64,000 bases of DNA from Acutalibacteraceae bacterium (GTDB taxonomy: Bacteria > Bacillota > Clostridia > Oscillospirales > Acutalibacteraceae). Below, piece after piece: positions 18,101-64,000 of the stretch (position 1 is its first letter; each line of letters opens with the position of its first letter). The position numbers and the translations under genes are program-made. The DNA lies in assembly GCA_045659605.1 (NCBI GenBank), contig JAZOXF010000032.1, forward strand, positions 5,364 through 69,363, read 5' to 3'. The notes under the pieces were generated by a model. That model ran no database searches and was not told where the DNA came from. It was given only the letters and a program-made list of their open reading frames with translations.

Positions 18101-18188
18101 ATTTTTTGGAGGTATCTTAATGTTTTTATTGGTTAAACGATGGCGAACTTAAAATAGTTTTAAGTTTTACATTTTAAGGAGAATAGAT

Positions 18189-28883: not shown

Positions 28884-28892
28884 TTTAACGAA

Positions 28893-46807: not shown

Positions 46808-46813
46808 ATATTC

Positions 46814-46842
46814 TTGACAAAGACGAATCATTGTAATATACT
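46814..46842 (+). promoter_or_regulatory. Promoter TTGACA-17-TATACT in front of the riboswitch
   Basis: TTGACA at 46814-46819 and TATACT at 46837-46842. It begins 7 nt after the DGC stop. Confidence 0.55.
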
Positions 46843-46849
46843 AATTGGT

Positions 46850-46930
46850 GTGAATATTTAGCAAAATCGGTGAAAGCCGATGACGCAAAGCCAAGAGGCT
46901 AAGGTTTTATACTATGCCAGTCCAGCTGCA
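46850..46930 (+). promoter_or_regulatory. c-di-GMP-I (GEMM-I) riboswitch aptamer
   Basis: AGCAAAATCGGTGAAAGCCGATGACGCAAAGCCAAGAGGCTAAGG...TGCCAGTCCAGCTGC. It has the GCAAA element, a GAAA-capped hairpin, the invariant GACGCAAAGCC and the CUAAGG...GCCAG second arm, as in Vc2 and Cd1. Confidence 0.85.
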
Positions 46931-46978
46931 ATGATACAAGGTCTTTGATAAAGACTTTTTATTGTTGCGGCTTTTTTC
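46925..46978 (+). terminator. Riboswitch expression platform: nested terminator hairpins
   Basis: The outer stem GCTGCAATGATA / TATTGTTGCGGC is followed by T6. The inner hairpin GTCTTT-GAT-AAAGAC is followed by T5. The 5' arm overlaps the 3' end of the aptamer. Confidence 0.65.
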
Positions 46979-47047
46979 TTTATCAGCATAAAATAAAAAG
47001 CTAAAAATATTTATTAGATAAGAATTGTATGGTGAGGTAAGGTTATA

Positions 47048-47884
47048 ATGAGCAATAAAATTATTGAATTTTTTAAAGGTATTGCATCAGAAAAAAAGCC
47101 CTATTTTAGCGATAAAAAACTCTTAAAGAAAATTGAAAACGGATTCAAAAACAATGAATTTAAGATGTATCTTCAATTTATTGTGGACACCAAGAAGAAA
47201 ATTGTTTCGGCCGAAACCCTATCAAGATGGGAAAATTCCGCAGGGGATATAATTTTCCCCGGTGAATATATTGGAACAATGGAGAAGTCCGGTCTTATTT
47301 CGAAATTTGATTATTATATGTTTGAGAAGGTTTGCAGTAAACTTGCCGCTTGGAAAAACACCGAGTTTGGAGACCTTACTATTTCTTGCAATTTCACAAG
47401 AATTACAATTTCGGAAAAAGGTTTTGCAAACAAAATAAAGTCAATTGCCGATAAGTATGATTTCGATAGAAGAAAATTATTAATTGAAATTACCGAGGAT
47501 TCTATCGAAAAGAACTTGGTTACCGCCATGTATAATATCATTAAGGTAAAAGAACTTGGCTTCCGCATTGCCTTGGACGATATCGGAAGCGGTTATACCT
47601 CTTTGGTTAGTCTTTGCGAATATCCCATTGATGTTGTTAAGATTGATAGAGAAATTCTTCTTTTAACAGGTACCGAAAAAGGCAAAAAGTTGCTTTTGGG
47701 TATTGTGGCTTTGGCGCACTATTTGAATTTAAAGGTTGTGTGCGAAGGTGTTGAAACCGAAGAACAAAATCAATTGGTAACGGATAGTGGCTGTGATTAT
47801 ATTCAAGGTTGGTATTATTCAAAAGCGCTTTCCGAAACTCAGGCGGAAAAGTTTGCGAAAGATTATATGAGTAAGTTTATATAA
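47048..47884 (+). CDS. Stand-alone EAL domain c-di-GMP phosphodiesterase
   Basis: AETLSRW, LIEITEDS, ALDDIGSGYTSL, VKIDREI, CEGVETEEQ and IQGWYYSKAL. The catalytic EAL-family residues appear intact. Confidence 0.8.
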   Translation: MSNKIIEFFKGIASEKKPYFSDKKLLKKIENGFKNNEFKMYLQFIVDTKKKIVSAETLSRWENSAGDIIFPGEYIGTMEKSGLISKFDYYMFEKVCSKLAAWKNTEFGDLTISCNFTRITISEKGFANKIKSIADKYDFDRRKLLIEITEDSIEKNLVTAMYNIIKVKELGFRIALDDIGSGYTSLVSLCEYPIDVVKIDREILLLTGTEKGKKLLLGIVALAHYLNLKVVCEGVETEEQNQLVTDSGCDYIQGWYYSKALSETQAEKFAKDYMSKFI

Positions 47885-47900
47885 ATTTCGGAGAATAAGT

Positions 47901-48446
47901 ATGAACAAGGATTTTTCAAAAGATTTATATAGATATTATGGTGAAAAAGGCGAGTCTTTTGCCAAAAGACTTCTAAGGCCTGTAGAGTTAAAATATATCG
48001 CCCTTTTCAGAAAGACCCAAAGTTGCAAATTTGCTCCTCTAAAACTTTACTATACCGTAAAACTTAAACTTATGTCCTATAAAACCCACATTCAAATTCC
48101 CGCAAGAACCCAAATTGGCGATGGTTTTTATATAGGTCATAGCGGTAGGGTAATTATTAATCCCGAAGCTAAGTTGGGTAAAAACATTAATGTTTCCACC
48201 GGTGTTGTTATCGGATACGAAAACAGGGGCAAAAGAAAAGGCGCCCCAACGCTGGAGGGAAATTGTTGGATTGGCGCTAATTCGGTTATAGTAGGTAATG
48301 TGAATATCGGTAAGGATGTACTAATTGCGCCCTTAACCTTTGTTAATTTTGATGTTCCACCCCACAGTATTGTTATTGGAAACCCTGCAAAAATCATAAG
48401 CAAAGAAAATGCCACAAAAGACTATATAGAAAATGAAGTAAACTAG
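47901..48446 (+). CDS. Hexapeptide-repeat O-acetyltransferase (serine acetyltransferase/WcaB-like)
   Basis: Left-handed beta-helix repeats (IGDGFYIGHSGRVIINPEAKLGKNINVSTGVVIG...CWIGANSVIVGNVNIGKDVLI). Confidence 0.75.
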   Translation: MNKDFSKDLYRYYGEKGESFAKRLLRPVELKYIALFRKTQSCKFAPLKLYYTVKLKLMSYKTHIQIPARTQIGDGFYIGHSGRVIINPEAKLGKNINVSTGVVIGYENRGKRKGAPTLEGNCWIGANSVIVGNVNIGKDVLIAPLTFVNFDVPPHSIVIGNPAKIISKENATKDYIENEVN

Positions 48447-48464
48447 AAAACGGAGGTGATTAGG

Positions 48465-49964
48465 ATGACTAAAAAGGACAATAGAATTAAATATAATTTG
48501 GTTTCAGGTATTGTTTATCAGGTTGTCCTAATTGTGCTTAGTTTTCTTCTTCCAAGACTTTATCTTGAAAATTTCGGTTCCGAGGTTAACGGTGTTTTAT
48601 CCACTATAAAGCAAATTTTTGTTTATATGTTCTTGCTTGAGGCGGGAATTGGACTTGCTACCACACAAGCCCTTTACAAACCCGTTGCTGAAAAGTCATA
48701 TGATAAGGTAAGTTCGGTTATCTCAGCCACCAATAATTTTTACACTAAAATTGGTTTTCTCTACTCGGGTATAGTTCTTTTAATTGCCGTTGTCTACGCA
48801 TTTATTGTTCCCACAAGCATACCTTCCGGTGTGGTTTTTGGGATAATTGTTTTAACCGGTCTTCCTTCGGTGTTCAGTTATTTTGTACAAGCTAAGTATA
48901 GAATACTTTTAGAGGTTGACGGTAGAAAGTACATAATAAACAATTCCGAAACAATACTTCAACTTTTATCTAACATAGCAAAAATATTAGTACTCTTGTT
49001 TACCGACAGTTTGTTGTTAATACAGGCATCTTACTGTGCTTTAGCACTTTTACAATTAGGATTTATTTATATCTATGCAAAGCGTAGATACAAATGGTTA
49101 AACTTGAAGGCTCAGCCCGATTTTCAGGCAATATCCCAAAGAAAGTCGGTTTTGGTACATCAAATTTCGGGCGTAGTTTTTAATAATACCGATATCTTGT
49201 TGCTTTCTTTCTTGTGCGATTTTAAGGTTGTAAGTGTTTATACCATCTATAACATATTCTTTTCCCAAGTGCAAAATTTCATAACAAGTATTACTGCAGG
49301 TTTCAGTTTTGCCCTCGGTCAAATGTTCCACACCGACAAAGAAAAATTTATGAAGGTTTATAATGTTTACGAAACATTTTACATTATGGCAACCTTCATT
49401 ATCTATACATTAATGGCAGTTTTCCTGTTGCCACTTATACAAATATATACTAAAGGTATTAACGATGCCAATTACACAAATGTTTATTTGGTGATTTTAT
49501 TCGTTATAATGAACCTTTTATCCAACGGAAAGTTGCCTTCTAATCATGTGCTTGAATATTCCGGCAAGTTTGAAGAAACCCGTTCCCATGCAATTACCGA
49601 AATGGTGATTAATATTACAGTTTCGGTTGTTGCGATTTTAAAATTTGGGATTTGCGGTGCCATTATGGGCACTATTATCGCTCTTTTGTACCGTGGCGCA
49701 ATGATGATTTATTATTCAAACAAAAAAGTGCTCGAAAGAAGCGTTTTTAATACATATAAAATTTGGCTTGTAAACGGGGCAGTTTTTGTTCTTATAATGG
49801 TGATTTTCTTTGTGGACAGTTTCAGCGGTTTTTCTTTCCTTGAACTTTTAGTAAAAGGGATAATTCATTTTATGTGGATTGTGCCCTTGTATGTTATTGT
49901 GAATTTTGTATTCCTTAAAGGTGCGTTTAAAAACTTGTTTGAATTGTGGAGGAAGAAAGTATGA
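48465..49964 (+). CDS. wzx: Polysaccharide flippase (Wzx, MOP superfamily)
   Basis: About 12-14 TM helices and ~500 aa, in a typical position in a Wzy-dependent cluster. ATG 48465 follows GGAGG. Confidence 0.65.
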   Translation: MTKKDNRIKYNLVSGIVYQVVLIVLSFLLPRLYLENFGSEVNGVLSTIKQIFVYMFLLEAGIGLATTQALYKPVAEKSYDKVSSVISATNNFYTKIGFLYSGIVLLIAVVYAFIVPTSIPSGVVFGIIVLTGLPSVFSYFVQAKYRILLEVDGRKYIINNSETILQLLSNIAKILVLLFTDSLLLIQASYCALALLQLGFIYIYAKRRYKWLNLKAQPDFQAISQRKSVLVHQISGVVFNNTDILLLSFLCDFKVVSVYTIYNIFFSQVQNFITSITAGFSFALGQMFHTDKEKFMKVYNVYETFYIMATFIIYTLMAVFLLPLIQIYTKGINDANYTNVYLVILFVIMNLLSNGKLPSNHVLEYSGKFEETRSHAITEMVINITVSVVAILKFGICGAIMGTIIALLYRGAMMIYYSNKKVLERSVFNTYKIWLVNGAVFVLIMVIFFVDSFSGFSFLELLVKGIIHFMWIVPLYVIVNFVFLKGAFKNLFELWRKKV

Positions 49965-50695
49965 GTATTCCAAAAGTAATTCATTATTGTTGGTTTGGCA
50001 AGGGTGAAATGCCCAAACTTGCTAAAAAATGCATTAAAAGTTGGAAGAAATATTGTCCCGATTATGAAATAATTTGTTGGAACGAAGAAAATTTCGATTT
50101 AACACAAAACCGCTATATGCATGAAGCATACGAAGCGGGTAAGTGGGCATTTGTCAGCGATGTTGCAAGACTTAAAATTATTTATGATAATGGCGGTATA
50201 TATTTAGATACCGATGTTGAAATTATAAAACCTATTGATGATTTGCTCAAAAGTAAAGGTTTTATGGGATTTGATGAAAAAGGCATTGTTGCCACAGGTC
50301 TGGGCTTCGGTGCCGAGAAGGGAAACGAAATTGTTGGCGAGTTTTTAAAGGATTATGACAATATTCCCTTTGTTTTGCCCGATGGCAGTTTTGATCTTAC
50401 TCCTTGTCCCGATAGAAATACCGAAACTTTAAAAAGACTCGGTATGGATACGGAAAATACAAATCAAAACTTTTTGGGTGTTGACTTTTTAGCCTGCGAA
50501 TACCTTTGCCCAATGGATTATTACACAGGTAAAAAGACAATAACTGAAAATACATATTCAATACATCATTATTCAGCTTCGTGGACTTCGAAAGTCACCA
50601 AAAGAACAACACGAATTAAGCGGATTATTGGTCTTAAGATGTATAATAAATTATACGGAAAATTTTTACATAAATTTAAGTGGCTGGAGTGGTAA
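49961..50695 (+). CDS. Glycosyltransferase family 32-like (DXD sugar-binding region)
   Basis: IPKVIHYCWFG, FVSDVARLKIIYDNGGIYLDTDVE (DXD). ATGA overlap with wzx. Confidence 0.7.
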   Translation: MSIPKVIHYCWFGKGEMPKLAKKCIKSWKKYCPDYEIICWNEENFDLTQNRYMHEAYEAGKWAFVSDVARLKIIYDNGGIYLDTDVEIIKPIDDLLKSKGFMGFDEKGIVATGLGFGAEKGNEIVGEFLKDYDNIPFVLPDGSFDLTPCPDRNTETLKRLGMDTENTNQNFLGVDFLACEYLCPMDYYTGKKTITENTYSIHHYSASWTSKVTKRTTRIKRIIGLKMYNKLYGKFLHKFKWLEW

Positions 50696-52236
50696 TTTTG
50701 CCCGAAGAATTATTTGGAAAATTTAAAAAGAATATCTTGCCTCAGTGGAAAGTGTGCTTTTGGTCGGCGCTTATCATTGGGTTGGTTGCCCATTTGTATA
50801 AAATTGTAAATTGGCTTCCAAACTGGGATTCCTTGGTTTTCAGATATGATGCGCAAAATATGGTTTCCATGGGAAGATGGTTCTTACCCGTTGCATCAGC
50901 CCCCAGTTCTTTTTACGATTTGCCATGGATTACAGGACTTTTATCAATTTTATTCCACGGCTTGGGCGCAGTTTGCATTTGTAAGATTTTCGATGTAAAG
51001 AAAAATACAACTGCGGCATTAATTGGCGCTGCGGTAGTTTCTTTCCCCACTGTCACATCGGTAATGCTATACAATTATGTGGCTGATTCCTATGCTTTAT
51101 CTTTCCTTTTGGCATGTTTGGCGGCGCTTTTTATAACAAGCGAGAAACCAAAGTTTGTTTTGGCCGCCATACTAATTGCCTTGTCGGTGGGAATTTATCA
51201 GGCTTATATAACGGTTACAATAATGCTTTTGCTTTGCTTCCTTATAAGAGAGGTTTTGTTTAAAGGTGAAAAGATTAAAACCTTGCTTATTAAAACTGTA
51301 AAGTTTTTGTTGACCGGAGCAGCCGGTATGGCGCTTTATTACTTGGCGCTTGTAATCATTTTAAAGATTACGGAAACCAAACTTTTGGAGTATCAAGGCT
51401 TTGATAATGCGGCCACACTTTCAAATATAAATATTTTAGGTTCCCTTTACATTGTTAAGGAATCTTTTGTATCCTATTTTTTTGATTTTTCAAAGGGACC
51501 GAATGTATTTAATGTTGTAAATATTATAATTTTAATTTCCACATTTTTATTTTATTTAATTGAAGTTGTCAGAAATAAACTAAAGATTTCTAAGGTTTTG
51601 GCGCTTTGTGTCGGCGCAGTTCTTTTGCCTATTGGCGCAAGTATTTTAGGATTTGTAAACAGCAGTATTGATTACCACAACCTGATGAAGATGGGATTTT
51701 TCGTCTTTTATTTATTCTTCATATTAGAGTATGAAAATACTGATTTTAAAGCCGAAAACCTCAACAAATCAAAGTCTTGGTTTATACTTGTTGTAACAGC
51801 GGTTTTGATTTTTAATCAGGTGATTATCGCTAATATTAGTTATCATAAAATCACTATTGCCTATGAAAAATCTTACGGAACGTTAATTAGAATTGCCGAC
51901 CGTATTGAACAAACCGAAGGTGCAAATGAGTGCGACAGTATTTTGGTGTTGGGCGCTTTGGAAGGCAGTGAGGCGTACAGTTCTGTTGTTTCTTTAGATA
52001 TGACCGGAACTACCGATGAATATATCTTGAGAGCCGACGATGAAATCGTAGGTCAAAGTGTTTTGACTAGCGCATTAAATGACTATTGCGGTAAAGATTA
52101 TAAATTTATTTCGGGCAAAGAAAAAACTGCATTACTTAAAAAGATAGATGCAGACAGTTTGAATAATTGGCCCCATAAGGATTCGGTTTTTGTAATTGAT
52201 GATGTTATTGTTATTAAATTAGGGGACGAAAGGTAG
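50680..52236 (+). CDS. Polytopic membrane protein, GtrII-like glucosyltransferase family (GT-C-like)
   Basis: The N-terminus NWLPNWDSLVFRYDAQNMVSMGRWFLP resembles the Glucos_trans_II family. There are ~10 TM helices and a soluble C-terminal domain. The start is uncertain (GTG 50680 or TTG 50698). Confidence 0.5.
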   Translation: MAGVVILPEELFGKFKKNILPQWKVCFWSALIIGLVAHLYKIVNWLPNWDSLVFRYDAQNMVSMGRWFLPVASAPSSFYDLPWITGLLSILFHGLGAVCICKIFDVKKNTTAALIGAAVVSFPTVTSVMLYNYVADSYALSFLLACLAALFITSEKPKFVLAAILIALSVGIYQAYITVTIMLLLCFLIREVLFKGEKIKTLLIKTVKFLLTGAAGMALYYLALVIILKITETKLLEYQGFDNAATLSNINILGSLYIVKESFVSYFFDFSKGPNVFNVVNIIILISTFLFYLIEVVRNKLKISKVLALCVGAVLLPIGASILGFVNSSIDYHNLMKMGFFVFYLFFILEYENTDFKAENLNKSKSWFILVVTAVLIFNQVIIANISYHKITIAYEKSYGTLIRIADRIEQTEGANECDSILVLGALEGSEAYSSVVSLDMTGTTDEYILRADDEIVGQSVLTSALNDYCGKDYKFISGKEKTALLKKIDADSLNNWPHKDSVFVIDDVIVIKLGDER

Positions 52237-52242
52237 ATTTAG

Positions 52243-53100
52243 ATGGTATATTTTTGTGCGGATGATTATGGTATATCAAAAGAATGTAATAGCCGCATAG
52301 AAAAATGTATCGAAAGCGGTGTTTTAAATAAAATAAGTGTTTTGCCAAACGGCGAACTGGAAAATTTCAAACAACGCTTGTCAAAATACGACGTTAAAAT
52401 ATCTTTACATATTAATTTAATTGAAGGTAAACCTTTGTCGCCAACCCATGATATTAATATGTTGGTAAATGATGAAGGAAATTTTAAATATTCCTTTATC
52501 GGATTGCTTTTACTTTCCCTTTCCCACAAAAGAAAACAACTTAAAAAGCAGTTGTATAAAGAAATTAAAGAACAAATTGTTTTTTGGAAAAAGAATATGG
52601 GTGAAAATCCTCTTTGGATTGACAGTCATCAGTATACTCATATGATACCACTGATTTTTAAAACCTTAATGCAGGTAATTAAGGATGAAGGGGTGGATGC
52701 CCAGTATCTTCGCATCCCAAACGAGCCTGTAACACCGTACCTTTTAACACCTTCTGTATATACTGAATGTAGTTTTATAGGGTTAACAAAACAATGGCTT
52801 TTAAAGTTTTTTACCCTTATTAATAAAAAACAATTTGAAAAATCAAACATAAACACAGCCTGTTTTATGGGGGTAATGTTTTCAGGAAAGGTTACCTGTA
52901 AGAGAATCAAAAATGTGCTTCCCCGTTATTTGAAAATCGCCAAAAAACAGGGAAGAGACATTGAAATAGCACTGCATCCCGGATATTTGGAAGCGGGTGA
53001 GTCCTTAATGGATGGTTGCAGGGCCGATTTTAAAAAGTTTTATTTATCGAAGGATCGTAAAATAGAGTACGATACCCTTATGAATTTTAAGTTTGAATAA
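52243..53100 (+). CDS. YdjC/ChbG/HpnK family carbohydrate deacetylase
   Basis: The N-terminus VYFCADDYGISKECNSRIEKCIESGVLNKISVL matches the YdjC pattern, with later DSHQYTH and HPG. Confidence 0.7.
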   Translation: MVYFCADDYGISKECNSRIEKCIESGVLNKISVLPNGELENFKQRLSKYDVKISLHINLIEGKPLSPTHDINMLVNDEGNFKYSFIGLLLLSLSHKRKQLKKQLYKEIKEQIVFWKKNMGENPLWIDSHQYTHMIPLIFKTLMQVIKDEGVDAQYLRIPNEPVTPYLLTPSVYTECSFIGLTKQWLLKFFTLINKKQFEKSNINTACFMGVMFSGKVTCKRIKNVLPRYLKIAKKQGRDIEIALHPGYLEAGESLMDGCRADFKKFYLSKDRKIEYDTLMNFKFE

Positions 53101-53115
53101 ATCCCAGAAAGAAGA

Positions 53116-53802
53116 ATGAAAATGCCTTACATTGAAAGCGAAAAAGTTGATGAAAAAACCAGAGTCAAATTAGAGGCTTTGCTTGAAAAATCATATTTGT
53201 CATATTGGAGAAAGAAAAGACTTTTTGACATATTTTTTGCCACTTTAATTTTACTTTTCTTTATTCCGCTTATGGTCATTATTGCTATTGTTATATGCAT
53301 TGATGACCCAAGCGCAGGACCCTTCTTTAAACAAAAAAGAGTTGGAAGACACGGTAAGGAATTTTATATGTATAAATTCCGTACCATGCGACCCAATGCA
53401 GAAAGTATTATTGATGAACTTAAGGACAAAAACGAAATGCAAGGTCCTGTTTTTAAAATGAAGGATGACCCGAGAATTACAAGGGTTGGAAAAATTTTGA
53501 GAAAATTGTCTTTGGATGAACTTATGCAGTTTTTCAATGTTTTCAAGGGGGATATGACCTTGGTGGGACCAAGACCACCCCTACCAAGAGAGGTAGAATA
53601 TTACACCGATTATCAAAAACTTCGTTTACTGGTTACTCCCGGAATCACCTGCACTTGGCAAATCCATAAAAACAGAAATGATGTTCCCTTTGAAGAATGG
53701 GTTGAAATGGATTTAGATTACATACAAAACAGAACCTTCCCGGGTGATATTTTGATTATGCTTAAAACACCAATTGTAATGCTTAGCGCAACAGGAAGAT
53801 AA
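53116..53802 (+). CDS. Initiating polyprenyl-phosphate sugar-phosphate transferase (small monotopic PGT, EpsL/PglC-like)
   Basis: KRLFDIFFATLILLFFIPLMVIIAIVI, GPFFKQKRVGRHGKEFYMYKFRTM, LDELMQFFNVFKGDMTLVGPRP and DLDYI. Confidence 0.85.
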   Translation: MKMPYIESEKVDEKTRVKLEALLEKSYLSYWRKKRLFDIFFATLILLFFIPLMVIIAIVICIDDPSAGPFFKQKRVGRHGKEFYMYKFRTMRPNAESIIDELKDKNEMQGPVFKMKDDPRITRVGKILRKLSLDELMQFFNVFKGDMTLVGPRPPLPREVEYYTDYQKLRLLVTPGITCTWQIHKNRNDVPFEEWVEMDLDYIQNRTFPGDILIMLKTPIVMLSATGR

Positions 53803-53825
53803 ACTCTTTTGCAAGGAGAAAAATT

Positions 53826-54956
53826 ATGAGGGTCGCAATGATTGGACATAAGGTAGTTCCATCCCGCCGCGGAGGTATTGAAAATGTGCTTACCACCCTT
53901 TGTCCTTTATTAGCCGAAATTGGCATTGATGTTACTTGTTACAATCGCTCGGGTCAAAAAATAGAAAACGAGTATATTGGCACAGTAATTGATGAAAAAT
54001 ATGGCGAAGTAAAGCTTAAAAAGGCTTGGACATTGAATTTTAGAGGTCTTTCGGCAATGATTGCTTCTTTCACTGCGGCCATAAGCGCAACCTTTGGAAA
54101 TTATGATGTTATCCATTTCCACGCCGAAGGCCCGTGCGCCGCTATGTGGATTCCGAAAATGTTTCGCAAACGCTGTGTTGCAACTGTTCACGGACTTGAT
54201 TGGCAAAGAGAAAAATGGGGCAAAGGTTTCGCTTCTAAATACATAAAATTCGGCGAACGAGTAATGGTTAAATATGCCGATGAGATTATTGTTTTAAGCG
54301 AAAGCGCCCGTGATTATTTTAAACAAACCTATAATCGCGAAACGGTACTTATTCACAACGGAATAGAAAGACCGGCCAAAAAGGATGCCGAAAAAATCAC
54401 CGAATTGTATGGAATTTCAAAAGGTGAGTATATTTGTATGGTATCAAGACTTACCGCCGAAAAAGGCGTTCATTACCTTATTGATGCTTATAATAATATT
54501 AAAACCGATAAAAAACTTGTAATCGCCGGTGACACCAGCGATACCGATGATTACGTTAAAATGTTAAAAGAAAAAGCGAAAAATAATCCTAATATAATTT
54601 TCACAGGATTTATATCGGGAGATGTTTTAAGAGAAGTTTACAGTAACGCTTATTTGGTTGCCCTTCCATCGGATATTGAGGGTATGTCTTTAAGCCTGTT
54701 GGAAGCCTTGGCTTATGGAAATGCGGTGCTGTGTTCTGATATTCCCGAAAATACTTTGGTTACCGAAGATAAAGCGATGCACTTCAGTAAAAGTAATATA
54801 GAAGATTTAACCGCTAAATTGCAAACTATGTGCGATGATGAGTCGTTGGTTAATAATCTTAAAAACGGCGTTGATGAATTTATTGTTGCCAAATATAGTT
54901 GGCAGGATGTTGCAACCGCCACCCATAACCTTTATAAAAAGGTTATGCAATTTTAG
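53826..54956 (+). CDS. Glycosyltransferase family 4 (GT-B), DUF1972/WchF-like N-terminus
   Basis: IGHKVVPSRRGGIENVLTTL at the N-terminus. The C-terminal EX7E region is PSDIEGMSLSLLEALAYG. Confidence 0.75.
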   Translation: MRVAMIGHKVVPSRRGGIENVLTTLCPLLAEIGIDVTCYNRSGQKIENEYIGTVIDEKYGEVKLKKAWTLNFRGLSAMIASFTAAISATFGNYDVIHFHAEGPCAAMWIPKMFRKRCVATVHGLDWQREKWGKGFASKYIKFGERVMVKYADEIIVLSESARDYFKQTYNRETVLIHNGIERPAKKDAEKITELYGISKGEYICMVSRLTAEKGVHYLIDAYNNIKTDKKLVIAGDTSDTDDYVKMLKEKAKNNPNIIFTGFISGDVLREVYSNAYLVALPSDIEGMSLSLLEALAYGNAVLCSDIPENTLVTEDKAMHFSKSNIEDLTAKLQTMCDDESLVNNLKNGVDEFIVAKYSWQDVATATHNLYKKVMQF

Positions 54957-54974
54957 TGAAAGGAAGTTTATGGT

Positions 54975-55943: not shown

Positions 55944-55961
55944 TTAAAAGGAGTGCAATAT

Positions 55962-57320
55962 ATGTATTCATCACTTTTGCAAAAAGTACCCGTTGCGATA
56001 GCGGCAGTATTGCTGTTGGCGGCGGCTTTGATAATATATTTCCGTTCTAAAAATGTTACACGTACCGAGTTTGTTAAGATATTAAAGGCTACAAAATATC
56101 TTCAGGTTTGGGTGATTGTTTTTGTGATTGCTTTAACCGGTGTTTTTGGCATTTTTAATCATCTGAAATCTAAACAATCGGTTATGGCGGTAGTTTCCCT
56201 TAATTATTCCGAAGCTTCCATGGCGCAAAATTCCAACGGCACCCGATATAATATGGCTGAAATTATTTGCGATGAAGTAGTAGAAAAGGCAATTGATATG
56301 GGCGCATTTGAGGATGTTACCGTTAAGCAACTTAAAAACTGCTTGTCGGTTTATCCTTATGTTCAGGGTGATGTAAACGATAAATCCAATTATCACATTT
56401 CTACTGAATTTGTTGTTGAGTATCATGCTTCAAAACATACCGACCATTTAAATTCCGAAAATGTAATTATGTTGATTACAAGCGCTTATAAGGAATATTA
56501 TATTGAAAAATATACCGATAATTATAGTCTTACCGCGAAGGTAGAAAAACCTGATTTTTCCAAGATGGAATATATGGATATCGTAAGTTATTTTAATAAG
56601 GAAACAACATCGGTTTTAAATTATTTATACGGTATGGGAGAAAAAGGCCCAAGTTTTGTTACCCAAAACGATGCAACCTTCAATTCAATTGCAGGTAAGG
56701 TTTATCAGTTTAAAGAAACCCAAATTGAACAAAACTTGAGTTCCCTTATTTTGCAATACGGTATTGCAAAAGATAAGGCGGGTTATATTGATAGGCTTTC
56801 TTATCAAAATAAAAATACCGATTTTAACAAGCAAAAGAATTCGGCTTCCTTTGGTCTTTGTAATGCGGCTATTGATATGTACGCCGAGGAAATGACACGA
56901 GTTGTTTTAGTTCCTACTTGGGACGGCAGCGGTAAATATTATATGGGCCGAACAAAGGTGGGTATTGACGAACTGTCTGTAATGGCTGCATCTTTTAGCG
57001 ATAAGGTAGCTACTAACGATAAGGCGATTATGGATAACCAACTTGTTATAGAAAAAATGGAGTCGGCAATTAAAAACGGTTCGGCAAATTCTCAGGCAGA
57101 CGCGCTTATTAAGTCAATTGATAAAAGTATAGAAAACTTTAAGATTGAAGCTATTCAGGCGGGTAGAGAATATTCAAACTATACAATGAATCAGTGTATC
57201 GCTGTCAGCATTTCGGGGGTTTCCTTGTTTAGCCAATTAAAGGTTATTGCCCTGTTTGCAATTTTTGCTTACATTGCTGCAATAATGTTTTCAGTCTCTA
57301 AAAAATTTCCCAAGTCATAA
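55962..57320 (+). CDS. Polysaccharide-copolymerase-like membrane protein (TM - large extracytoplasmic domain - TM)
   Basis: Two N-terminal hydrophobic helices, a ~370-aa hydrophilic domain predicted helical, and a C-terminal TM (VIALFAIFAYIAAIMF). The call rests on topology and context only. Confidence 0.4.
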   Translation: MYSSLLQKVPVAIAAVLLLAAALIIYFRSKNVTRTEFVKILKATKYLQVWVIVFVIALTGVFGIFNHLKSKQSVMAVVSLNYSEASMAQNSNGTRYNMAEIICDEVVEKAIDMGAFEDVTVKQLKNCLSVYPYVQGDVNDKSNYHISTEFVVEYHASKHTDHLNSENVIMLITSAYKEYYIEKYTDNYSLTAKVEKPDFSKMEYMDIVSYFNKETTSVLNYLYGMGEKGPSFVTQNDATFNSIAGKVYQFKETQIEQNLSSLILQYGIAKDKAGYIDRLSYQNKNTDFNKQKNSASFGLCNAAIDMYAEEMTRVVLVPTWDGSGKYYMGRTKVGIDELSVMAASFSDKVATNDKAIMDNQLVIEKMESAIKNGSANSQADALIKSIDKSIENFKIEAIQAGREYSNYTMNQCIAVSISGVSLFSQLKVIALFAIFAYIAAIMFSVSKKFPKS

Positions 57321-57347
57321 ACGAAGATCACATAGGAAGGTGAAAAA

Positions 57348-59225
57348 ATGAAAAATTTTCAAATTATGAGATATTTAAAAAAGCTTTTGCCGATTTTTGT
57401 GGTTTTTTGTTTGGTGGCTACTTATGCAATTAATTTCAAACTCAAAGGTTCTAATACCTATGTAGCATCTGAAGTTATTCACTACAATGACCCTGCGGCA
57501 GAACAGGGATTAACCCCAACAGGTTCCAAACTGGATGTTAACGAAATTAAATCTTCGGCTGTAATGTCAAAGGTTGTTGACAAAATGGGGCTCACCGGAA
57601 TTTATTCGGTGGACAGTTTGATTTCAAGAGTTTCTATAACCCCACTTCCCGATGAGGATAAAATAGCTCAAAAGGAAGCAAAACTCGAAGAGGGCGAAGA
57701 ATACATCTACGAGCCAAGTACATATATCGTGTCTTTCACAGCTACAAACAATGAAGGACCTGATTTTGCGAGAACTATTCTTGATGAAACCCTTGACGTG
57801 TATTTTGCTGAATACAGCCAAAAATATGTTAACGTCGCTCCCGTGAAAAATGTCATAGATGATTTAGAAAACGAGAACTATGACTATATTGAAATGTTAG
57901 AAATAATTGATATGGGTATTGATGAAACATTGAATACTTTATATCAAAGAATGGAACAAAATCCTTACTATAGGGCAACTAATACAGGAGCTTCCTTTAG
58001 TGATTTGGCCGATGAGTTTAATTATTTAAGAAATGTCAGATTATCGGCATTGTTTTCAAAGATTTATAAAAACCAAATAACAAAAAACAAGACAATTTTG
58101 GTTTCTGATTATACAACAAGAATTGATAATAACAATATTTTAAATACAAAAGAAGAAAGTATCGTTAAAGATACGGTTGATGTTATTGACGCTTATGTTG
58201 AAAAAATGAGAGAGTCAGGAAACACCAACATTACTTATGAGTATATTCTTGATAACGTTCACGAGCGCAATTTGGTTGACGGTTCGGGTAATCCTATTAC
58301 ATCGGGTGACCAAACAGTAACATACGATGAGTTAATCTACAGTTGGAGAGACCACAACGAAACAAAAGAATACTCCATCATTGATACTGCTTATTGCCAA
58401 TATATTATTGAAACATTTTCGGCTTGTACCGGTAAATGCAACGGTAAGGAATGTTTAACTTCATCCCAAACCTGTACCGAATTGCACGATGAAAATTATA
58501 AAGAATTGAAAAAAGAAATTGACACTGAAATAGAGTCGCTTATTTCCGATTTGACAAAACTCTACAATACTACAATGAACACCAATGATGAGTATAATCA
58601 GTACCTTGGCGCAAGTTATATTTCGGTTTTATCCACTGCATCGGTAAAACCCAGCATTAATGTAAATCTTTACACTTTAATTGCCTTCTTCTTCCTTGTA
58701 ATTCTTTGCTGCGGCGGCGCGATTGTGTTGGGAAGAATGGGAGATATTATCAGTTACATCTTCTACACCGACCATCTTACCGAACTTAATAACCGCGCTT
58801 ATTTTGACAAATATCTAAAGTCTATGGATAAGAAGCTCTTGGATAACGGAACGGTTTATTGTATGGTTGAGATAGCAAATCTCGGCGCCATTAACAATGA
58901 ATACAGTCGACAAATAGGCGATGGCATCATTAAGATGTTCACAACATACTTGAAAGAATCTTTTGGTAAAACAAATGCCGAGTTTGTTTATAATGGCAAC
59001 GGTAGTTTTGTAATTATGGCTAAAGATTCCGATTATATCACTGTTGAGGATATTTTAAGACTCTTCGGTTTGAGACTTGATGAACGCGAAGATTATCAAA
59101 ACATAAAAATTGAATACAAGGTTGGCATTGCCGAAACCTTTAAAGAAAATCAAACTGCAAGAAGATTGCTTTCCGAAACCATTAAAAATAAAAAAGATTT
59201 TACATCTGAGGTTTTGGGAAAATAA
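57348..59225 (+). CDS. Wzz/PCP-like chain-length-determinant fused to a C-terminal degenerate GGDEF domain
   Basis: TM1, then a Wzz-like start (YVASEVIHYNDP...EIKSSAVMSKVVDKMGL), a coiled-coil region and TM2 (LIAFFFLVILCCGGAIVLG). The cytoplasmic part is DHLTELNNRAYFDKYL...CMVEIANLGAINNEYSRQIGDGII...FVYNGNGSFVIM...KVGIAE. This is a GGDEF fold with the metal and GG(D/E)EF residues replaced. Confidence 0.65.
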   Translation: MKNFQIMRYLKKLLPIFVVFCLVATYAINFKLKGSNTYVASEVIHYNDPAAEQGLTPTGSKLDVNEIKSSAVMSKVVDKMGLTGIYSVDSLISRVSITPLPDEDKIAQKEAKLEEGEEYIYEPSTYIVSFTATNNEGPDFARTILDETLDVYFAEYSQKYVNVAPVKNVIDDLENENYDYIEMLEIIDMGIDETLNTLYQRMEQNPYYRATNTGASFSDLADEFNYLRNVRLSALFSKIYKNQITKNKTILVSDYTTRIDNNNILNTKEESIVKDTVDVIDAYVEKMRESGNTNITYEYILDNVHERNLVDGSGNPITSGDQTVTYDELIYSWRDHNETKEYSIIDTAYCQYIIETFSACTGKCNGKECLTSSQTCTELHDENYKELKKEIDTEIESLISDLTKLYNTTMNTNDEYNQYLGASYISVLSTASVKPSINVNLYTLIAFFFLVILCCGGAIVLGRMGDIISYIFYTDHLTELNNRAYFDKYLKSMDKKLLDNGTVYCMVEIANLGAINNEYSRQIGDGIIKMFTTYLKESFGKTNAEFVYNGNGSFVIMAKDSDYITVEDILRLFGLRLDEREDYQNIKIEYKVGIAETFKENQTARRLLSETIKNKKDFTSEVLGK

Positions 59226-59252
59226 TTTAAAATAAAGCCGAAAGGAGGGTAA

Positions 59253-60563
59253 ATGAAAATGGAAAATAAACTGACAACCACCGGATTAAAGGGGTATTTT
59301 ATCGCAGTAGCGGTGCTTATGTACTATTTCCTTACCGAAACTATTAATCTTGGTTTGTTTGTTACCTATCGACATGCATTTGCCCTCGTTTTGTTTGCTT
59401 CGGCCTTCTTTTGTTTTTTGTTTAAACCTAACATTGCAAGAGGTGTTACTACACTTAAATCAACCTTTGTTTACTGTGTTCCCCTTATTGTAACCATTTT
59501 GGCTTCACTTTTTATATGGTTTATGGGTCAGGTGGATACAGCGGTTATTGCTCGCGGATTATCGGGAGCCTTTGTTTATAACAATATGATTTCCTTTACC
59601 CTTGCGGCAGTTGCATTTTTATATATTTTCGGTGAAAAAGGAATTTGGTATAACCTTATTGCAATTCTTATTTCAAATATGCTAATTATTTTTACCGTTA
59701 TTCTTCAAAACGGAATAGGCGTTTTCTTTTCCGAATTTGTAAGGCTTATTGTAACCTTTGCGGGAGAAACGGGAGATGTTATTGTTCAGGCCGAAATTCA
59801 CGAACTTGCTTTTTGTCTCGGTGCATATTTGATATATATGTTATTTAATTTTAAGAAAAATATAGTGTTTTTCATTCTTTTGGCGCTTACAGGATTTTGT
59901 TTTCTTGCTGCCTTTAAGCGAATTGGTATTATTGCAATTGTGGTTGCTCTAGGGTTGGGTTTTGCGCTAAAGTTTGTTGCAAAATTCAAAGAAAGCACAG
60001 CTAAAAATTTATCGGTAATATTTTCAGTGGTTTTGGTGCTGTTGCTGATAGGCTATATTGCAATCATAAAACTGGATGTTTTCACATTGCTTGAAAAAGC
60101 AGGAATTAACACCAGCGGTCGTGTTGAAATTTACAATGCGGTTGATAAATTTTACGATTTTTCTCCCGAATTTTTGGGTAACGGAATAGGATATTTAACA
60201 TATCAATTAAGTACCAATATGAATGTGGGCGTTTCATCGGTTCACAATGACTTTTTACAGTATTTCATCGACCTTGGATTTTGGGGATATATTTTGTGGC
60301 TTGTTTCTATGACAACGTTAAGGGTTTGTTATTTCGGCTCCAAGGGCAAAACCGATAACGGAATTTTAGCCTTAGCGCTTACGGTTTATCTTATCATAGT
60401 TTCTTCTACCGATAACACAATGAACTATCCACTGCTTACTACCGTAATTGCAATTATAATGATAGGCCACGGATTTGATGAATCGGTGCGTTTTAACGAA
60501 AATAAAATGTTTGGCTATGTTTCAAAAGTAAATGAAAGCCCGAAAGGGGATTCGCTTTTATGA
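59253..60563 (+). CDS. wzy: O-antigen/EPS polymerase (Wzy, O-antigen ligase family)
   Basis: About 11 TM helices and an extracytoplasmic loop with SSVHNDFLQYFIDLGFWG (Wzy_C-type motif). Confidence 0.7.
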   Translation: MKMENKLTTTGLKGYFIAVAVLMYYFLTETINLGLFVTYRHAFALVLFASAFFCFLFKPNIARGVTTLKSTFVYCVPLIVTILASLFIWFMGQVDTAVIARGLSGAFVYNNMISFTLAAVAFLYIFGEKGIWYNLIAILISNMLIIFTVILQNGIGVFFSEFVRLIVTFAGETGDVIVQAEIHELAFCLGAYLIYMLFNFKKNIVFFILLALTGFCFLAAFKRIGIIAIVVALGLGFALKFVAKFKESTAKNLSVIFSVVLVLLLIGYIAIIKLDVFTLLEKAGINTSGRVEIYNAVDKFYDFSPEFLGNGIGYLTYQLSTNMNVGVSSVHNDFLQYFIDLGFWGYILWLVSMTTLRVCYFGSKGKTDNGILALALTVYLIIVSSTDNTMNYPLLTTVIAIIMIGHGFDESVRFNENKMFGYVSKVNESPKGDSLL

Positions 60564-61771
60564 AAATATTAATGGTGAATAAGTTCCTTTATCCCAGAGG
60601 CGGTTGTGAAACCTATATGTTGAATTTGGCGGAAGAACTTAAAGCCAAAGGACACGAAGTTGAGTACTTCGGAATGTATGACCCCAAAAATACAGTTGGA
60701 AATTCTATGGGTTTATATACCACCAATATGGATTTCCATTCCACAGGATTTCAAAGATTTTTTTATCCCTTTAAAATAATTTATTCTCACGAGGCTTATA
60801 AGAAAATTTCAAAGGTATTAGATGATTTTAAACCTGATATTGTTCATATGAATAATATCAATTTTCAACTAACACCATCAATTATTTACGCCATAAAAAA
60901 GCGCAATATCCCCCTTGTTCAAACGGTTCATGATTATCAAATGATTTGTCCTAACCATCTTTTATATAGTTTTAATGAAACAAAACCTTGCGAAAGATGT
61001 ATAAACGGCTCAAAGTTTAATTGTTTTAAATATAATTGTATTCACGGGTCAAAGGCTAAAAGTTTAATCGGTTCCATTGAAGCCAAATTGTATTCTTGGC
61101 TTAAAACCTACAAAAAAGTAGATTTGTATGTTTGTCCAAGTAGGTTTTTGGAAAGCAAACTTTTAAGCGTTTCGGATATTTATTCCGGCAAAACCTTTGC
61201 CATACATAACTTTATTGAAAAGAAACCCTTGCCCGAAAAAATTGATGGAGAAAAACCTTATGTGGCTTTTGCAAGTAGGCTTTCGAAAGAAAAAGGGGTT
61301 ACACTTTTGGCCGAGGCTGCAAAACTTTTGCCACAATATAGATTTGTTGTGGCGGGAAACGGCCCTGATGATGAATGTCTAAAGAATATTCCTAATGTTG
61401 AGTTAAAGGGTTTTGTTACGGGAAATGAACTCATTTCCTTGATAGCAAATGCAAAACTTATGATTTTGCCTTCGGTTTGGTATGAAAATTGTCCTTTAAA
61501 TATATTGGAGACTCATTCTTTTGGTGTTCCTGTTATAACAATGAATAGTGGCGGTATGGCGGAACTTGTTGATGACGGCCAAACGGGAATACTTATAAAC
61601 CAACCAACCGCTAAGGAAATTGCTAAAGCAATTGAGAAATGTTTTGAAGATGAAGAGTTTTATAACTTCTTAAAGAAAAATTGCGAAAAAATGCCCGACC
61701 AAATTATTGAGGTCGGCGAGTATTGTGATATCTTGTTAGGTAAGTATCAAAAAATTATAAACAAGAGGTGA
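60560..61771 (+). CDS. Glycosyltransferase family 4 (GT-B)
   Basis: MKILMVNKFLYPRGGCETY. The C-terminal EX7E region is PSVWYENCPLNILETHSFG. Confidence 0.8.
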   Translation: MKILMVNKFLYPRGGCETYMLNLAEELKAKGHEVEYFGMYDPKNTVGNSMGLYTTNMDFHSTGFQRFFYPFKIIYSHEAYKKISKVLDDFKPDIVHMNNINFQLTPSIIYAIKKRNIPLVQTVHDYQMICPNHLLYSFNETKPCERCINGSKFNCFKYNCIHGSKAKSLIGSIEAKLYSWLKTYKKVDLYVCPSRFLESKLLSVSDIYSGKTFAIHNFIEKKPLPEKIDGEKPYVAFASRLSKEKGVTLLAEAAKLLPQYRFVVAGNGPDDECLKNIPNVELKGFVTGNELISLIANAKLMILPSVWYENCPLNILETHSFGVPVITMNSGGMAELVDDGQTGILINQPTAKEIAKAIEKCFEDEEFYNFLKKNCEKMPDQIIEVGEYCDILLGKYQKIINKR

Positions 61772-61776
61772 AAATA

Positions 61777-62832
61777 GTGTCGTTGCCCAAGGTTAGCATT
61801 GTTGTACCTGTGTATAATACCGAAAAATATCTTAAACAATGCATAGATTCCTTAACATCCCAAACCCTTGAGGAAATAGAAATAATAATTGTTGATGACG
61901 GTTCCAAAGAGGAATGTGCCTTTCTTTGCGATGAAATTTCCAAAACCGATTCTAGAATCAAGGTTGTTCATAAGCAAAACGGCGGTTTAGGTTTGGCCCG
62001 AAATACGGGTATTGGGGTGGCAACGGGCGAATACATAGGCTTTGTGGATTCGGATGACTATGTCGATTCACAAATGTATAAATCTCTTTACGATGCAGCA
62101 GTAAAAAACGATGCTGACTTATGCTTGTCGGGAATTAGTTTTGTTGGCGGTAATACCTTTAGTAAATCGGGAGATTATACCGAGAAACACTATTTTGACA
62201 AGGATACTGTTTTTGAAAATGAGGGTATTAAAGAACTTCTTTTAGGAGTTGTTGGCGCATTGCCCAATGAACCTGATGACAGCCGATACGGAGTTAGTGT
62301 TTGTAAAAATATTTTCAAACGTTCCTTGTTAAATGATAGAAAAATTGATTTTTTTTCCGAGCGCAAAATCATCAGCGAGGATACGCTTTTTATGGTAGAC
62401 TTTATTAAATGTTGCAAAAAAGCGGTGGGAATTTACGGGGCGTTTTATTGTTACAGGAGAAACGATGAGTCCCTTTCTAAATCTTATAAGGCTGACCGTT
62501 TCGAGAAAGTATTAATCTTTTTGTCCTGCCTTGAGGAACATTTAAAAGATGTATTAAAAAAAGAAGAATATGAGTTATATTTAAACCGCTTAATTCAAGG
62601 ATATGCCCGAGTTGTGGCTTCCCAAGAAATTGTCTATGCAAAGGATAAAAAAACAGGTCACTTTACTTTGCGCGGGCGACTTGAAGAAATTTGCACAAAC
62701 AAAAAAATAGTTTGCGCATTAAAAAAATACCCTTGGCATAAATTACCCAAAAAACAAGCGGCATTCGCATTCGCAATGAAGTACAAATTATACTTTTTGC
62801 AAAAATTAATGGTGTTATTTAGAGCAAGATAG
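61777..62832 (+). CDS. Glycosyltransferase family 2
   Basis: VSIVVPVYNTEKYLKQCIDSLTSQT, IIVDDGS and FVDSDD (DXD). The start is GTG 61777 (after GAGGTGA) or GTG 61768. Confidence 0.8.
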   Translation: MSLPKVSIVVPVYNTEKYLKQCIDSLTSQTLEEIEIIIVDDGSKEECAFLCDEISKTDSRIKVVHKQNGGLGLARNTGIGVATGEYIGFVDSDDYVDSQMYKSLYDAAVKNDADLCLSGISFVGGNTFSKSGDYTEKHYFDKDTVFENEGIKELLLGVVGALPNEPDDSRYGVSVCKNIFKRSLLNDRKIDFFSERKIISEDTLFMVDFIKCCKKAVGIYGAFYCYRRNDESLSKSYKADRFEKVLIFLSCLEEHLKDVLKKEEYELYLNRLIQGYARVVASQEIVYAKDKKTGHFTLRGRLEEICTNKKIVCALKKYPWHKLPKKQAAFAFAMKYKLYFLQKLMVLFRAR

Positions 62833-62843
62833 GAGTTAAAAGG

Positions 62844-63872
62844 ATGCTTTTTTCAGTAATCGTTCCAATATACAAAATTGAAAAATACCTTTCAAGATGT
62901 ATTGAAAGCCTACTTGCGCAATCTTTTACGGATTTTGAAGTTATATTGGTCGATGATGGCTCACCAGATAATTGCCCCACCATTTGTGATGATTATGCCG
63001 CTAAGGATAAAAGAATTAAGGTTATCCATAAAGAAAACGGCGGTCTTGTCAGCGCAAGACAAGAGGGTATTAAGGTGGCTTTGGGAGATTATATTTTCCA
63101 TCTTGACGGCGATGATGCCCTTTGTGACAATGCCCTTGAAAGCGCCTATGAAATTATAAGCGAATACCACCCTGATATTGTTTCTTTTTCTTATAAACCC
63201 TGTGTTGGTGACCAAGTGGGCGAAGCGGTCCATGACCTAGCACGTGAAGGTTTATACGATAAAGCACTTATGCAAGAGAAAATTTACCCCCACCTTTTGT
63301 CCGATAAAAATATGAACCATATATTTTACTTTTCCTGGGGAAAGGCAATAAGGAGAGAAATTGCTGTTAAACATCAACTTAATGTAAACCCCAAGATTTC
63401 TTTGGGTGAGGATTTAAGTTGCGCTGTGCCTTGTTATTTGGATGCTAAGACTGTTTATATGAGTAAAAAGGCAGTTTATCTCTATACCATTAGAAACGAT
63501 TCCATTACAAACGATTTCAAGACAAGCCAAATTACTCAAATTGCCGATGTTGTTGAGGGACTTCGCAAATTGGAAGTTAAAAAACCTGATGATTTCGAAG
63601 CCCAAATTTCCCGTTATTCTTGTTTTATGTGTTTTGCAGTTTTGGCATTGGCAGCTGAGGGAAATCATTTTTCTTCGGTTAAAACAATTAAAGAGCTTAT
63701 TAAGAATTCTTTACACAGGGAAGAAATTAAAAAGGCTGAATTCCAAAATATTACCATTAAAAGCCGAATTACTATATTTTTGATGAAAAAACAATGTATA
63801 AGACTAGCGTTTTGCTTTTTGTATTTGTGCAAAGAAATAAAGCGTATCAGAAAGGGTGAAAAAAGTGAATAA
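62844..63872 (+). CDS. Glycosyltransferase family 2
   Basis: FSVIVPIYKIEKYLSRCIESLLAQS, ILVDDGSPD and HLDGDD. Confidence 0.8.
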   Translation: MLFSVIVPIYKIEKYLSRCIESLLAQSFTDFEVILVDDGSPDNCPTICDDYAAKDKRIKVIHKENGGLVSARQEGIKVALGDYIFHLDGDDALCDNALESAYEIISEYHPDIVSFSYKPCVGDQVGEAVHDLAREGLYDKALMQEKIYPHLLSDKNMNHIFYFSWGKAIRREIAVKHQLNVNPKISLGEDLSCAVPCYLDAKTVYMSKKAVYLYTIRNDSITNDFKTSQITQIADVVEGLRKLEVKKPDDFEAQISRYSCFMCFAVLALAAEGNHFSSVKTIKELIKNSLHREEIKKAEFQNITIKSRITIFLMKKQCIRLAFCFLYLCKEIKRIRKGEKSE

Positions 63873-63879
63873 ATCACCT

Positions 63880-64000
63880 ATGATATCTTTGATTATGAGT
63901 GTTTACAATGGGGAGGATTATTTATCCGAAGCCATTGATAGTGTTTTAAATCAAAGTTTTACTAACTGGGAACTTATTGTAATAAACGATTGCTCCACCG
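63880..64000 (+). CDS. Glycosyltransferase family 2, N-terminal fragment (runs off window end)
   Basis: Hand translation gives MISLIMSVYNGEDYLSEAIDSVLNQSFTNWELIVINDCST. An alternative GTG start lies at 63865. Confidence 0.7.
   Translation, partial: MISLIMSVYNGEDYLSEAIDSVLNQSFTNWELIVINDCST

Follow-up and report, generated by a model that had tools for sequence, protein, structure and literature searches.

A conserved leader RNA of the c-di-GMP-I class as a likely ON switch for a long exopolysaccharide operon in Acutalibacteraceae

We analysed a 64,000-nucleotide stretch of contig JAZOXF010000032.1 from an Acutalibacteraceae bacterium (GenBank assembly GCA_045659605.1, positions 5,364 to 69,363 of the forward strand), hereafter the window, in which a leader RNA lies between the gene of a sensor diguanylate cyclase and a long string of exopolysaccharide (EPS) genes. 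By covariance-model score and by structure, this RNA is a member of the cyclic di-GMP (c-di-GMP) class I, or GEMM-I, riboswitches, with the caveat that position 20 of its aptamer (in the numbering of the Vibrio cholerae Vc2 riboswitch) is an A. The best overall explanation of the locus, which we regard as quite probable, is that it encodes a c-di-GMP ON riboswitch gating one long EPS mRNA. The riboswitch class and its general logic are already known, and no clostridial EPS operon under riboswitch control turned up in the limited literature collection that was searched; the chief novelty lies in a family of polysaccharide co-polymerase (PCP) proteins fused to a GGDEF domain, and in a series of orthologous leaders in which position 20 is A, position 20 is G, or the riboswitch is deleted.

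Relatives of the locus were collected by scanning the EAL protein encoded by the first gene of the string, taken as anchor gene, against one genome per species. This yielded 35 loci, all in metagenome-assembled genomes assigned either to Acutalibacteraceae or to unclassified Clostridia and recovered from the guts of humans, cattle, deer and other hosts. Thirty leaders of different species were aligned. The leader is preceded by a sigma-A type promoter (Table 1), which would place the transcription start near 46849-46850; both of its hexamers are kept in 30/30 leaders, where they begin 6-12 nt past the cyclase stop codon. The comparison with Rfam family RF01051 that the initial annotation had suggested returned 60.4 bits (gathering cut-off 35; E 2.5e-9), with the model covered from 1 to 87 of its 87 positions, and the leaders of seven relatives were also matched by the same family, at 39-65 bits. 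Together with the promoter hexamers and the energy of the terminator hairpin, this score bears out the promoter, riboswitch and terminator that had been proposed at 46814-46978.

The ligand-contact positions equivalent to A47 and C92 of Vc2 are present in the window aptamer (A46887 and C46929), and position 20 is occupied by A46860 rather than by the G of Vc2, at a spacing to the A47 equivalent that, counted from the sequence, is identical to that of Vc2. In this count, position 20 is the nucleotide preceding the first G-C pair, and the A47 equivalent is the A after GACGC. P2 ends in a GAAA tetraloop that is near-invariant over the 30 leaders (GAAG in one), and P3 contains a CUAAG/UAUG tetraloop receptor, the G.U and G-C pairs of which are invariant across them. 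In the alignment, 87% of the aptamer cells are paired and four P2 pairs show compensatory changes, far above the slid controls. Compared with Vc2, the window RNA thus shares the full covariance-model match, the spacing of position 20, A47, P2 and P3, the GAAA loop with its receptor and the C92 equivalent, and it differs in the A at position 20, in a weak P1 and in having a transcription terminator as its expression platform.

The terminator hairpin of this platform folds at -24.6 kcal/mol (z = -4.75 against dinucleotide shuffles, with 0/200 shuffles folding as well), and across the 30 leaders pairing reaches 93% of its cells, seven pairs having changed in both partners, compared with 37-60% for slid partners. 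Its 5' arm (46924-46936) consists of aptamer nucleotides, namely the base of P3, G46928, C46929 and the 3' strand of P1. The Vc2 counterpart of C46929, C92, forms a Watson-Crick pair with one of the ligand's guanines. The P3 closing pairs of G46925, C46926 and U46927 (partners A46889-C46891) are consumed by this arm, and the ligand-pairing C46929 pairs with G46967 in the terminator fold, an overlap of aptamer and terminator that is conserved across the 30 leaders. Because the terminator reuses aptamer nucleotides, the two folds are mutually exclusive. Left unconstrained, the leader as a whole has the terminator fold as its minimum free energy (MFE) structure (-41.8 kcal/mol, compared with -20.2 when aptamer P1-P3 is enforced); under that constraint a residual inner hairpin of only ~-6 kcal/mol is left, followed by UUAUUGUUGCGG instead of a U-tract. 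No separate antiterminator is visible in the leader, and no alternative pairing is conserved across the 30-leader alignment. The layout, in which the ligand-pairing cytosine is taken by the terminator, is the same as that of the pilM ON switch, whose aptamer and terminator cannot coexist (PMC9262584). The direction of regulation is here predicted from structure, and the mutual exclusivity of the folds leads us to regard an ON switch as the most likely design, with read-through allowed by binding of the ligand.

The surroundings of the leader are also conserved. The order cyclase, leader, EAL, acetyltransferase, membrane protein, GT32, GtrII, YdjC and initiating phosphoglycosyl transferase (PGT) is kept wherever the contig reaches, over ~33 species-level loci and with protein identities of 54-96%, and loci fetched via the PCP-GGDEF protein keep the remaining gene order too. 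The cyclase upstream of the leader is conserved in ~31 loci, and the aptamer is found at the same place in 29/33 syntenic species-level loci. As judged by this synteny and these identities, the locus is a conserved lineage feature and not the accessory, strain-variable locus for which the initial annotation had taken it. The underlying compositional observation, a more AT-rich region, is real but reflects a small difference (G+C ~0.35 in 44-64 kb and ~0.39 elsewhere in the window).

Downstream of the leader, 15 complete open reading frames (ORFs) and one cut by the window end follow on the + strand, separated by intergenic gaps of 6-27 nt or overlapping by 4-19 nt, in agreement with the earlier description of 16 same-strand genes spaced by at most 27 nt. 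An energy-based scan of 46800-64000 identified the leader terminator as the sole strong + strand terminator, which likewise upholds the reported lack of internal stem-plus-U-tract terminators, and pattern-based terminator-like matches in the gene string numbered 13, compared with 15.1 +/- 3.5 in shuffles, all of them within coding sequence. Candidate internal terminators at 54924 and 52508 were rejected, as they lie within coding sequence, have weak tails and form hairpins that are unconserved in relatives. Past the point at which the window ends, the related loci L002 and L003 continue with the third GT2 gene, a gene for a 453-aa EAL-domain protein (17614-18975, +), a GT2 gene and an Acyl_transf_3 gene, and then reach an intrinsic terminator. 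The first strong terminator of L003 (21002-21024) falls in its first gap of >40 nt, after gene 20; no terminator-like site in the 20-kb scan was better than the one in this gap, ACCCGAAG...CTTCGGGT followed by a T-run, and the next gene has a promoter-like site there as well. Judged from these relatives, the unit would extend beyond the window edge to ~20 genes and ~21 kb. Since the leader is genuine, the gaps are too small for terminator-promoter pairs and the sole clear terminators are that of the leader and, in relatives, the one ~21 kb downstream, second-messenger-dependent attenuation of one long EPS transcript appears to be the best reading of the sequence.

Several observations weigh against this reading and have to be set beside it. 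P1 is weak (~4 bp) and ambiguous in register, helix 1 being 82% paired in the 30 leaders with no compensatory changes; A20 aptamers can bind 3',3'-cGAMP (cyclic GMP-AMP) besides c-di-GMP, and some are highly cGAMP-selective (PMC8835794); promoter-like hexamer pairs between 44.4 and 64 kb, counted on both strands, number 98, compared with 73 +/- 8 in shuffles; and the riboswitch is absent, and the operon kept, in four syntenic loci (L015, L026, L029 and L032). In L015 (4990-5052; compare L014, 5830-6000) aptamer and terminator have dropped out cleanly, leaving promoter and ribosome-binding site abutting, and Rfam is negative. As four relatives keep the operon without the riboswitch, the switch is dispensable, which suggests that it is a detachable module and that the riboswitch-less loci may be regarded as natural "constitutive" variants. 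Their existence, the mild enrichment of promoter-like sites in the window and the fact that very long operons often have internal promoters would all be compatible with a leader whose control stops after the first gene or genes and serves as EAL feedback, most of the EPS genes being driven by internal promoters. The most suggestive candidate is an 11/12 match at 52619-52646 that is also present in L003, but it is made up of the codons for IDSHQxTHMIP, the catalytic motif of YdjC, with a -35 element that varies among relatives, and we rejected it as a promoter. In L003 the promoter-like matches (50) are not above shuffles (44 +/- 8). Furthermore, no internal terminator separates units, no intergenic gap exceeds 27 nt, and the gene order is rigid from the leader to the terminal terminator; any internal promoters, which are possible inside coding sequence, would supplement read-through control and not abolish it. 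We therefore consider a restriction of the leader to the first genes unlikely. The single unit under attenuation that the initial annotation had envisaged holds as to its one leader and its lack of internal terminators, and needs amending in that internal promoters are possible and its end lies beyond the window. A reversal of the switch is very improbable. Of the c-di-GMP-I riboswitches that have been characterised and contain a terminator, many are OFF switches, one of them Cd1 of C. difficile, in which aptamer and terminator coexist (PMC9262584). With such a switch here, c-di-GMP would promote termination, the EAL and EPS genes would be made only at low c-di-GMP, and an EAL gene made at low signal would lock in the low-signal state. 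This arrangement requires the coexistence of aptamer and terminator together with an antiterminator, whereas in the window the 3' part of the aptamer, with its ligand-pairing C, is consumed by the terminator, no constraint is needed for the terminator fold to be the MFE, and a conserved antiterminator pairing was not found; EPS synthesis that is off at high c-di-GMP would, in addition, be contrary to general c-di-GMP biology.

The identity of the ligand turns on position 20. A riboswitch of the GEMM-Ib type would sense 3',3'-cGAMP and place the EPS operon under cGAMP control, and A46860 is the signature change of that type: A20 is the hallmark of cGAMP riboswitches, and the G20A change renders Vc2 bispecific, with c-di-GMP bound at 53 nM and cGAMP at 120 nM, compared with picomolar c-di-GMP and 10 uM cGAMP for the wild-type G20 aptamer (PMC6140456). 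The ON layout, too, resembles that of a cGAMP riboswitch, pilM (PMC9262584). However, G20, which rejects cGAMP, occurs in 4/30 orthologous leaders (L018, L025, L031 and L036), scattered among A20 relatives and at the same syntenic position, and if A20 and G20 orthologues share one ligand, that ligand must be c-di-GMP. The one clostridial A20 aptamer that has been measured, the natural Cbe 1-2, prefers c-di-GMP ~15-fold (30 nM, and 463 nM for cGAMP; PMC6140456). The flanking enzymes, a canonical-Asp GGDEF protein and an EAL phosphodiesterase, represent c-di-GMP-specific chemistry, whereas cGAMP-making Hypr GGDEF enzymes carry Ser where canonical GGDEF domains have Asp (PMC8835794). As far as the window reaches, the locus likewise shows no link to a cGAMP synthase of the Hypr GGDEF or DncV type, the neighbouring GGDEF being canonical and the first regulated gene encoding an EAL protein, and no CD-NTase or Hypr GGDEF was seen within the 64 kb. 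A20 is common to the window RNA and to the GEMM-Ib/A20 variants of Geobacter (Gs1761 and pilM/Gm0970) and C. beijerinckii (Cbe 1-2); the window RNA is also like pilM in that its ON platform sequesters the ligand-pairing C (PMC9262584) and like Cbe 1-2 in its clostridial host (PMC6140456), and it is unlike these variants in its context of purely c-di-GMP enzymology and in the existence of G20 orthologues. These comparisons make it unlikely that the window RNA belongs to the cGAMP-selective subgroup, and control of the operon by cGAMP is accordingly improbable. Because of the G20 orthologues, the intact EAL protein and the canonical-Asp cyclase next door, c-di-GMP remains the likely ligand. By analogy with the model aptamers, in which the affinity shifts from picomolar to tens of nM, A20 probably raises the c-di-GMP threshold and leaves the physiological ligand unchanged.

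The products of the operon (Table 1) fit a Wzy-type pathway, with an initiating PGT, a Wzy polymerase, a PCP by fold and glycosyltransferases of families GT2, GT4 and GT32, and with a flippase that is a candidate. Pfam backs most of the gene list of the initial annotation (EAL, acetyltransferase, GT32, GtrII, YdjC, PGT, two GT4, metallophosphoesterase, Wzy_C and the GT2 proteins), but the protein listed there as Wzx is without a family match, and just its polytopic membrane topology and its size are as expected: searches of Pfam (E <= 10), NCBIfam, PHROGs and PDB sequences returned no informative match, and its homologues are unnamed or labelled "sugar isomerase". The 278-aa EAL phosphodiesterase encoded by the first gene retains every catalytic motif (ETLSR, the N in SCNFT, EITE, DDIGSG, KID, EGVE and QG) and is predicted to be active.

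Table 1. Features of the riboswitch locus within the window
Feature	Coordinates	Strand	Basis or remarks
Sensor diguanylate cyclase, 764 aa	44513-46807	+	Pfam GGDEF E 6.4e-19
Sigma-A type promoter	46814-46842	+	TTGACA-17 nt-TATACT; 11/12 consensus matches
c-di-GMP-I (GEMM-I) aptamer	46850-46933	+	Rfam RF01051
Expression platform	46924-46981	+	22-bp interrupted terminator hairpin 46924-46972, then U6-C-U3 (46972-46981)
Stand-alone EAL phosphodiesterase, 278 aa, first operon gene	47048-47884	+	Pfam EAL E 9.5e-58
Hexapeptide O-acetyltransferase	47901-48446	+	Pfam
Candidate flippase, polytopic membrane protein, 499-502 aa	48456-49964	+	Hydropathy
GT32 (Gly_transf_sug)	49946-50695	+	Pfam
GtrII-like membrane glycosyltransferase	50680-52236	+	Pfam
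YdjC-family deacetylase	52243-53100	+	Pfam
Small initiating PGT	53116-53802	+	Bac_transf E 9e-65
GT4	53826-54956	+	Pfam
Membrane-anchored metallophosphoesterase	54975-55943	+	Pfam and hydropathy
Bitopic protein, 455 aa	55953-57320	+	Distantly paralogous to the PCP part of the 625-aa protein
PCP-GGDEF protein, 625 aa	57348-59225	+	Pfam GGDEF E 1.8e-10
Wzy-type polymerase	59253-60563	+	Wzy_C E 3e-10
GT4	60560-61771	+	Pfam
GT2	61768-62832	+	Pfam
GT2	62844-63872	+	Pfam
Third GT2, start only	from ~63866/63881	+	Cut off by the window end (64000)

In ~10 relatives, an extra gene for a 134-aa GtrA-like small membrane protein stands between the EAL and acetyltransferase genes (L018, 6851-7255, +; also L007, L017, L019, L020, L024, L025, L027, L031 and L032). 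It is absent from the window, where the EAL-acetyltransferase gap is 16 nt. The two most distant matches of the anchor search (L033, 672-1439, and L034, 3317-4084) encode an EAL domain without a preceding riboswitch and in a different context, where it apparently continues from the upstream coding region as part of a fused multidomain protein.

The 764-aa cyclase upstream of the leader has two transmembrane helices that, by hydropathy, flank a Cache-like extracytoplasmic domain (dCache_1 at E 7.6e-5, below the Pfam cut-off). Its GGDEF domain retains an intact RMGGDEF motif and the canonical guanine-binding N and D (INNKFGHASGD); no RxxD I-site was found on reading the sequence. A Hypr signature, indicative of cGAMP synthesis, was considered and rejected, since GHASGD carries the canonical Asp and not Ser. 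No terminator was found between the cyclase stop codon and the leader promoter, either in the window or in the leaders of the relatives, so that transcription of the cyclase gene would read into the leader. The C-terminal extension of the cyclase (~145 aa, residues ~621-764; 46373-46804, +) has no Pfam match; relatives conserve its sequence, also where the riboswitch is missing. In L025, a Gut-1 RNA (RF01706, 52.6 bits; gathering cut-off 50) is located at 35-118 on the - strand, ~3 kb upstream of the cyclase gene.

Two proteins of the operon had been called PCP-like in the initial annotation. Neither is matched by the Wzz family profile PF02706 even at E <= 10, and the GGDEF domain of one of them, the 625-aa protein, had been overlooked, but the N-terminal 475 residues of that protein do adopt a PCP fold in the model. 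Its predicted topology comprises TM1 (~6-34), a Wzc/Wzz-like ectodomain, TM2 (~439-473) and a cytoplasmic degenerate GGDEF domain. AlphaFold models reached a pLDDT of 82 for the full length and of 84 for residues 1-475, the latter being modelled separately as the full-length fold search was swamped by GGDEF matches. In the comparison of the N-terminal model with the PDB, the top eight matches were all Wzc (E 4e-6 to 1.5e-4), followed by FepE, WzzE and KpsE, so that PCP structures only were retrieved; the TM-scores are low (0.17-0.28), as expected from the long flexible helical arms. In the arrangement that characterises PCP proteins, and that the model displays, an alpha/beta base and an ectodomain formed by a long helical hairpin have a transmembrane helix on either side. 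The C-terminal part of the protein matches GGDEF structures. The preceding 455-aa protein shares 20% identity over 289 aa with the PCP-GGDEF protein in a pairwise BLASTP comparison (E 7e-6).

In the GGDEF domain of the 625-aa protein, NGNGSF replaces the catalytic motif, with GYNGxGxF found across 48 relatives, and the domain is predicted to be catalytically dead. An RxxD I-site five residues before the GGDEF motif is absent from this protein and unconserved in the 48 relatives, in which the motifs LPNR..CD and N....GR..GD and a C-terminal R..L are conserved. An R-x-G-D/E motif directly after TM2 (R463-D466; 58734-58745) is conserved in the family, with R463 invariant in the 48 sequences; we take it to resemble the RxGD c-di-GMP-binding motif of BcsE, and it could equally be a positive-inside membrane anchor. 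The protein has >1,200 close homologues, the best 120 of which are 78-100% identical, and the few that are named are called "diguanylate cyclase". Among representatives at the 50% level, which were searched exhaustively, 140 matched at E < 1e-30, many of them full-length at 25-40% identity and some of them ~450-aa versions without the GGDEF domain. We found no description of a PCP-GGDEF fusion in the limited literature collection searched, and the family is apparently undescribed.

The architecture predicted by the model is that of Wzc with its kinase replaced by a degenerate GGDEF domain. Wzc is a PCP-2a protein with a C-terminal BY-kinase, from the group 1 capsule and colanic acid systems of E. 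coli; the 625-aa protein has the same succession of TM1, ectodomain, TM2 and cytoplasmic regulatory domain, and its gene likewise clusters with those of a Wzy polymerase and an initiating PGT. It differs from Wzc in that its cytoplasmic domain is a degenerate GGDEF and not a tyrosine kinase, and, as the host lineage is monoderm, in having no Wza partner; Pfam revealed no tyrosine kinase or phosphatase gene in the window cluster. PelD of Pseudomonas, PssE of Listeria and YdaK of Bacillus subtilis are degenerate-GGDEF c-di-GMP receptors in synthase-dependent EPS operons, and they bind c-di-GMP via a retained RxxD I-site. What the PCP-GGDEF protein shares with these receptors is a GGDEF domain, here predicted to be dead, that belongs to a membrane protein whose gene lies in an EPS operon; unlike them, the PCP-GGDEF family lacks RxxD and is fused to the PCP of a Wzy-type pathway, with no processive synthase. 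We tentatively suggest a second nucleotide switch in the operon, acting at the level of protein, in the form of a Wzc-like co-polymerase whose kinase module has been replaced by a dead GGDEF domain, although we lean against this possibility.

Elsewhere in the window, a T-box leader (RF00230, 114 bits) is found at 17842-18082 (+), upstream of a gene for a PALP-family pyridoxal phosphate-dependent enzyme (18189-19430), and a 6S RNA (RF00013, 56.3 bits; gathering cut-off 46.4) at 28892-29088 (+).

Taken together, these data are consistent with a circuit in which the sigma-A promoter would start the leader RNA, the first 85 nt of which would fold as a GEMM-I aptamer. With no ligand, the 3' end of the aptamer would pair with 46960-46972 to form the terminator hairpin, and polymerase would stop at ~46975 after U6. 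With c-di-GMP bound, the aptamer would hold those nucleotides, leaving a weak inner hairpin without a U-tract, and read-through would generate a single long mRNA covering the 16 genes in the window and, judging from relatives, ~20 genes and 21 kb. Transcripts from the upstream cyclase gene would also stop at, or pass, the riboswitch terminator. The first product of the mRNA, the EAL phosphodiesterase, would exert negative feedback on the signal, and the Wzy-type EPS pathway would be made next, in keeping with the textbook logic by which c-di-GMP turns on matrix polysaccharide synthesis. A second nucleotide input, of a post-translational kind, may come from the PCP with its dead GGDEF domain.

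If this GGDEF domain binds c-di-GMP or GTP, the messenger would directly gate chain-length control or export in a Wzy-type pathway, and, were the protein a nucleotide receptor, post-translational c-di-GMP control would be extended from synthase-dependent to Wzy-type EPS systems. The cyclase, the A20-tuned ON riboswitch, the EAL protein and the PCP-GGDEF protein would then constitute a self-contained feed-forward and feedback c-di-GMP module, with the natural A/G polymorphism at position 20 of the aptamer as a threshold-tuning device. To our knowledge, c-di-GMP signalling is almost unstudied in uncultured gut Oscillospirales. The orthologous leaders with A20, with G20 and with the riboswitch deleted offer a natural experiment on how position 20 may tune affinity and specificity, and the locus as a whole offers a conserved, self-contained circuit of sensor cyclase, putative ON riboswitch, feedback phosphodiesterase and ~20 EPS genes, which would predict when these Oscillospirales build surface polysaccharide.

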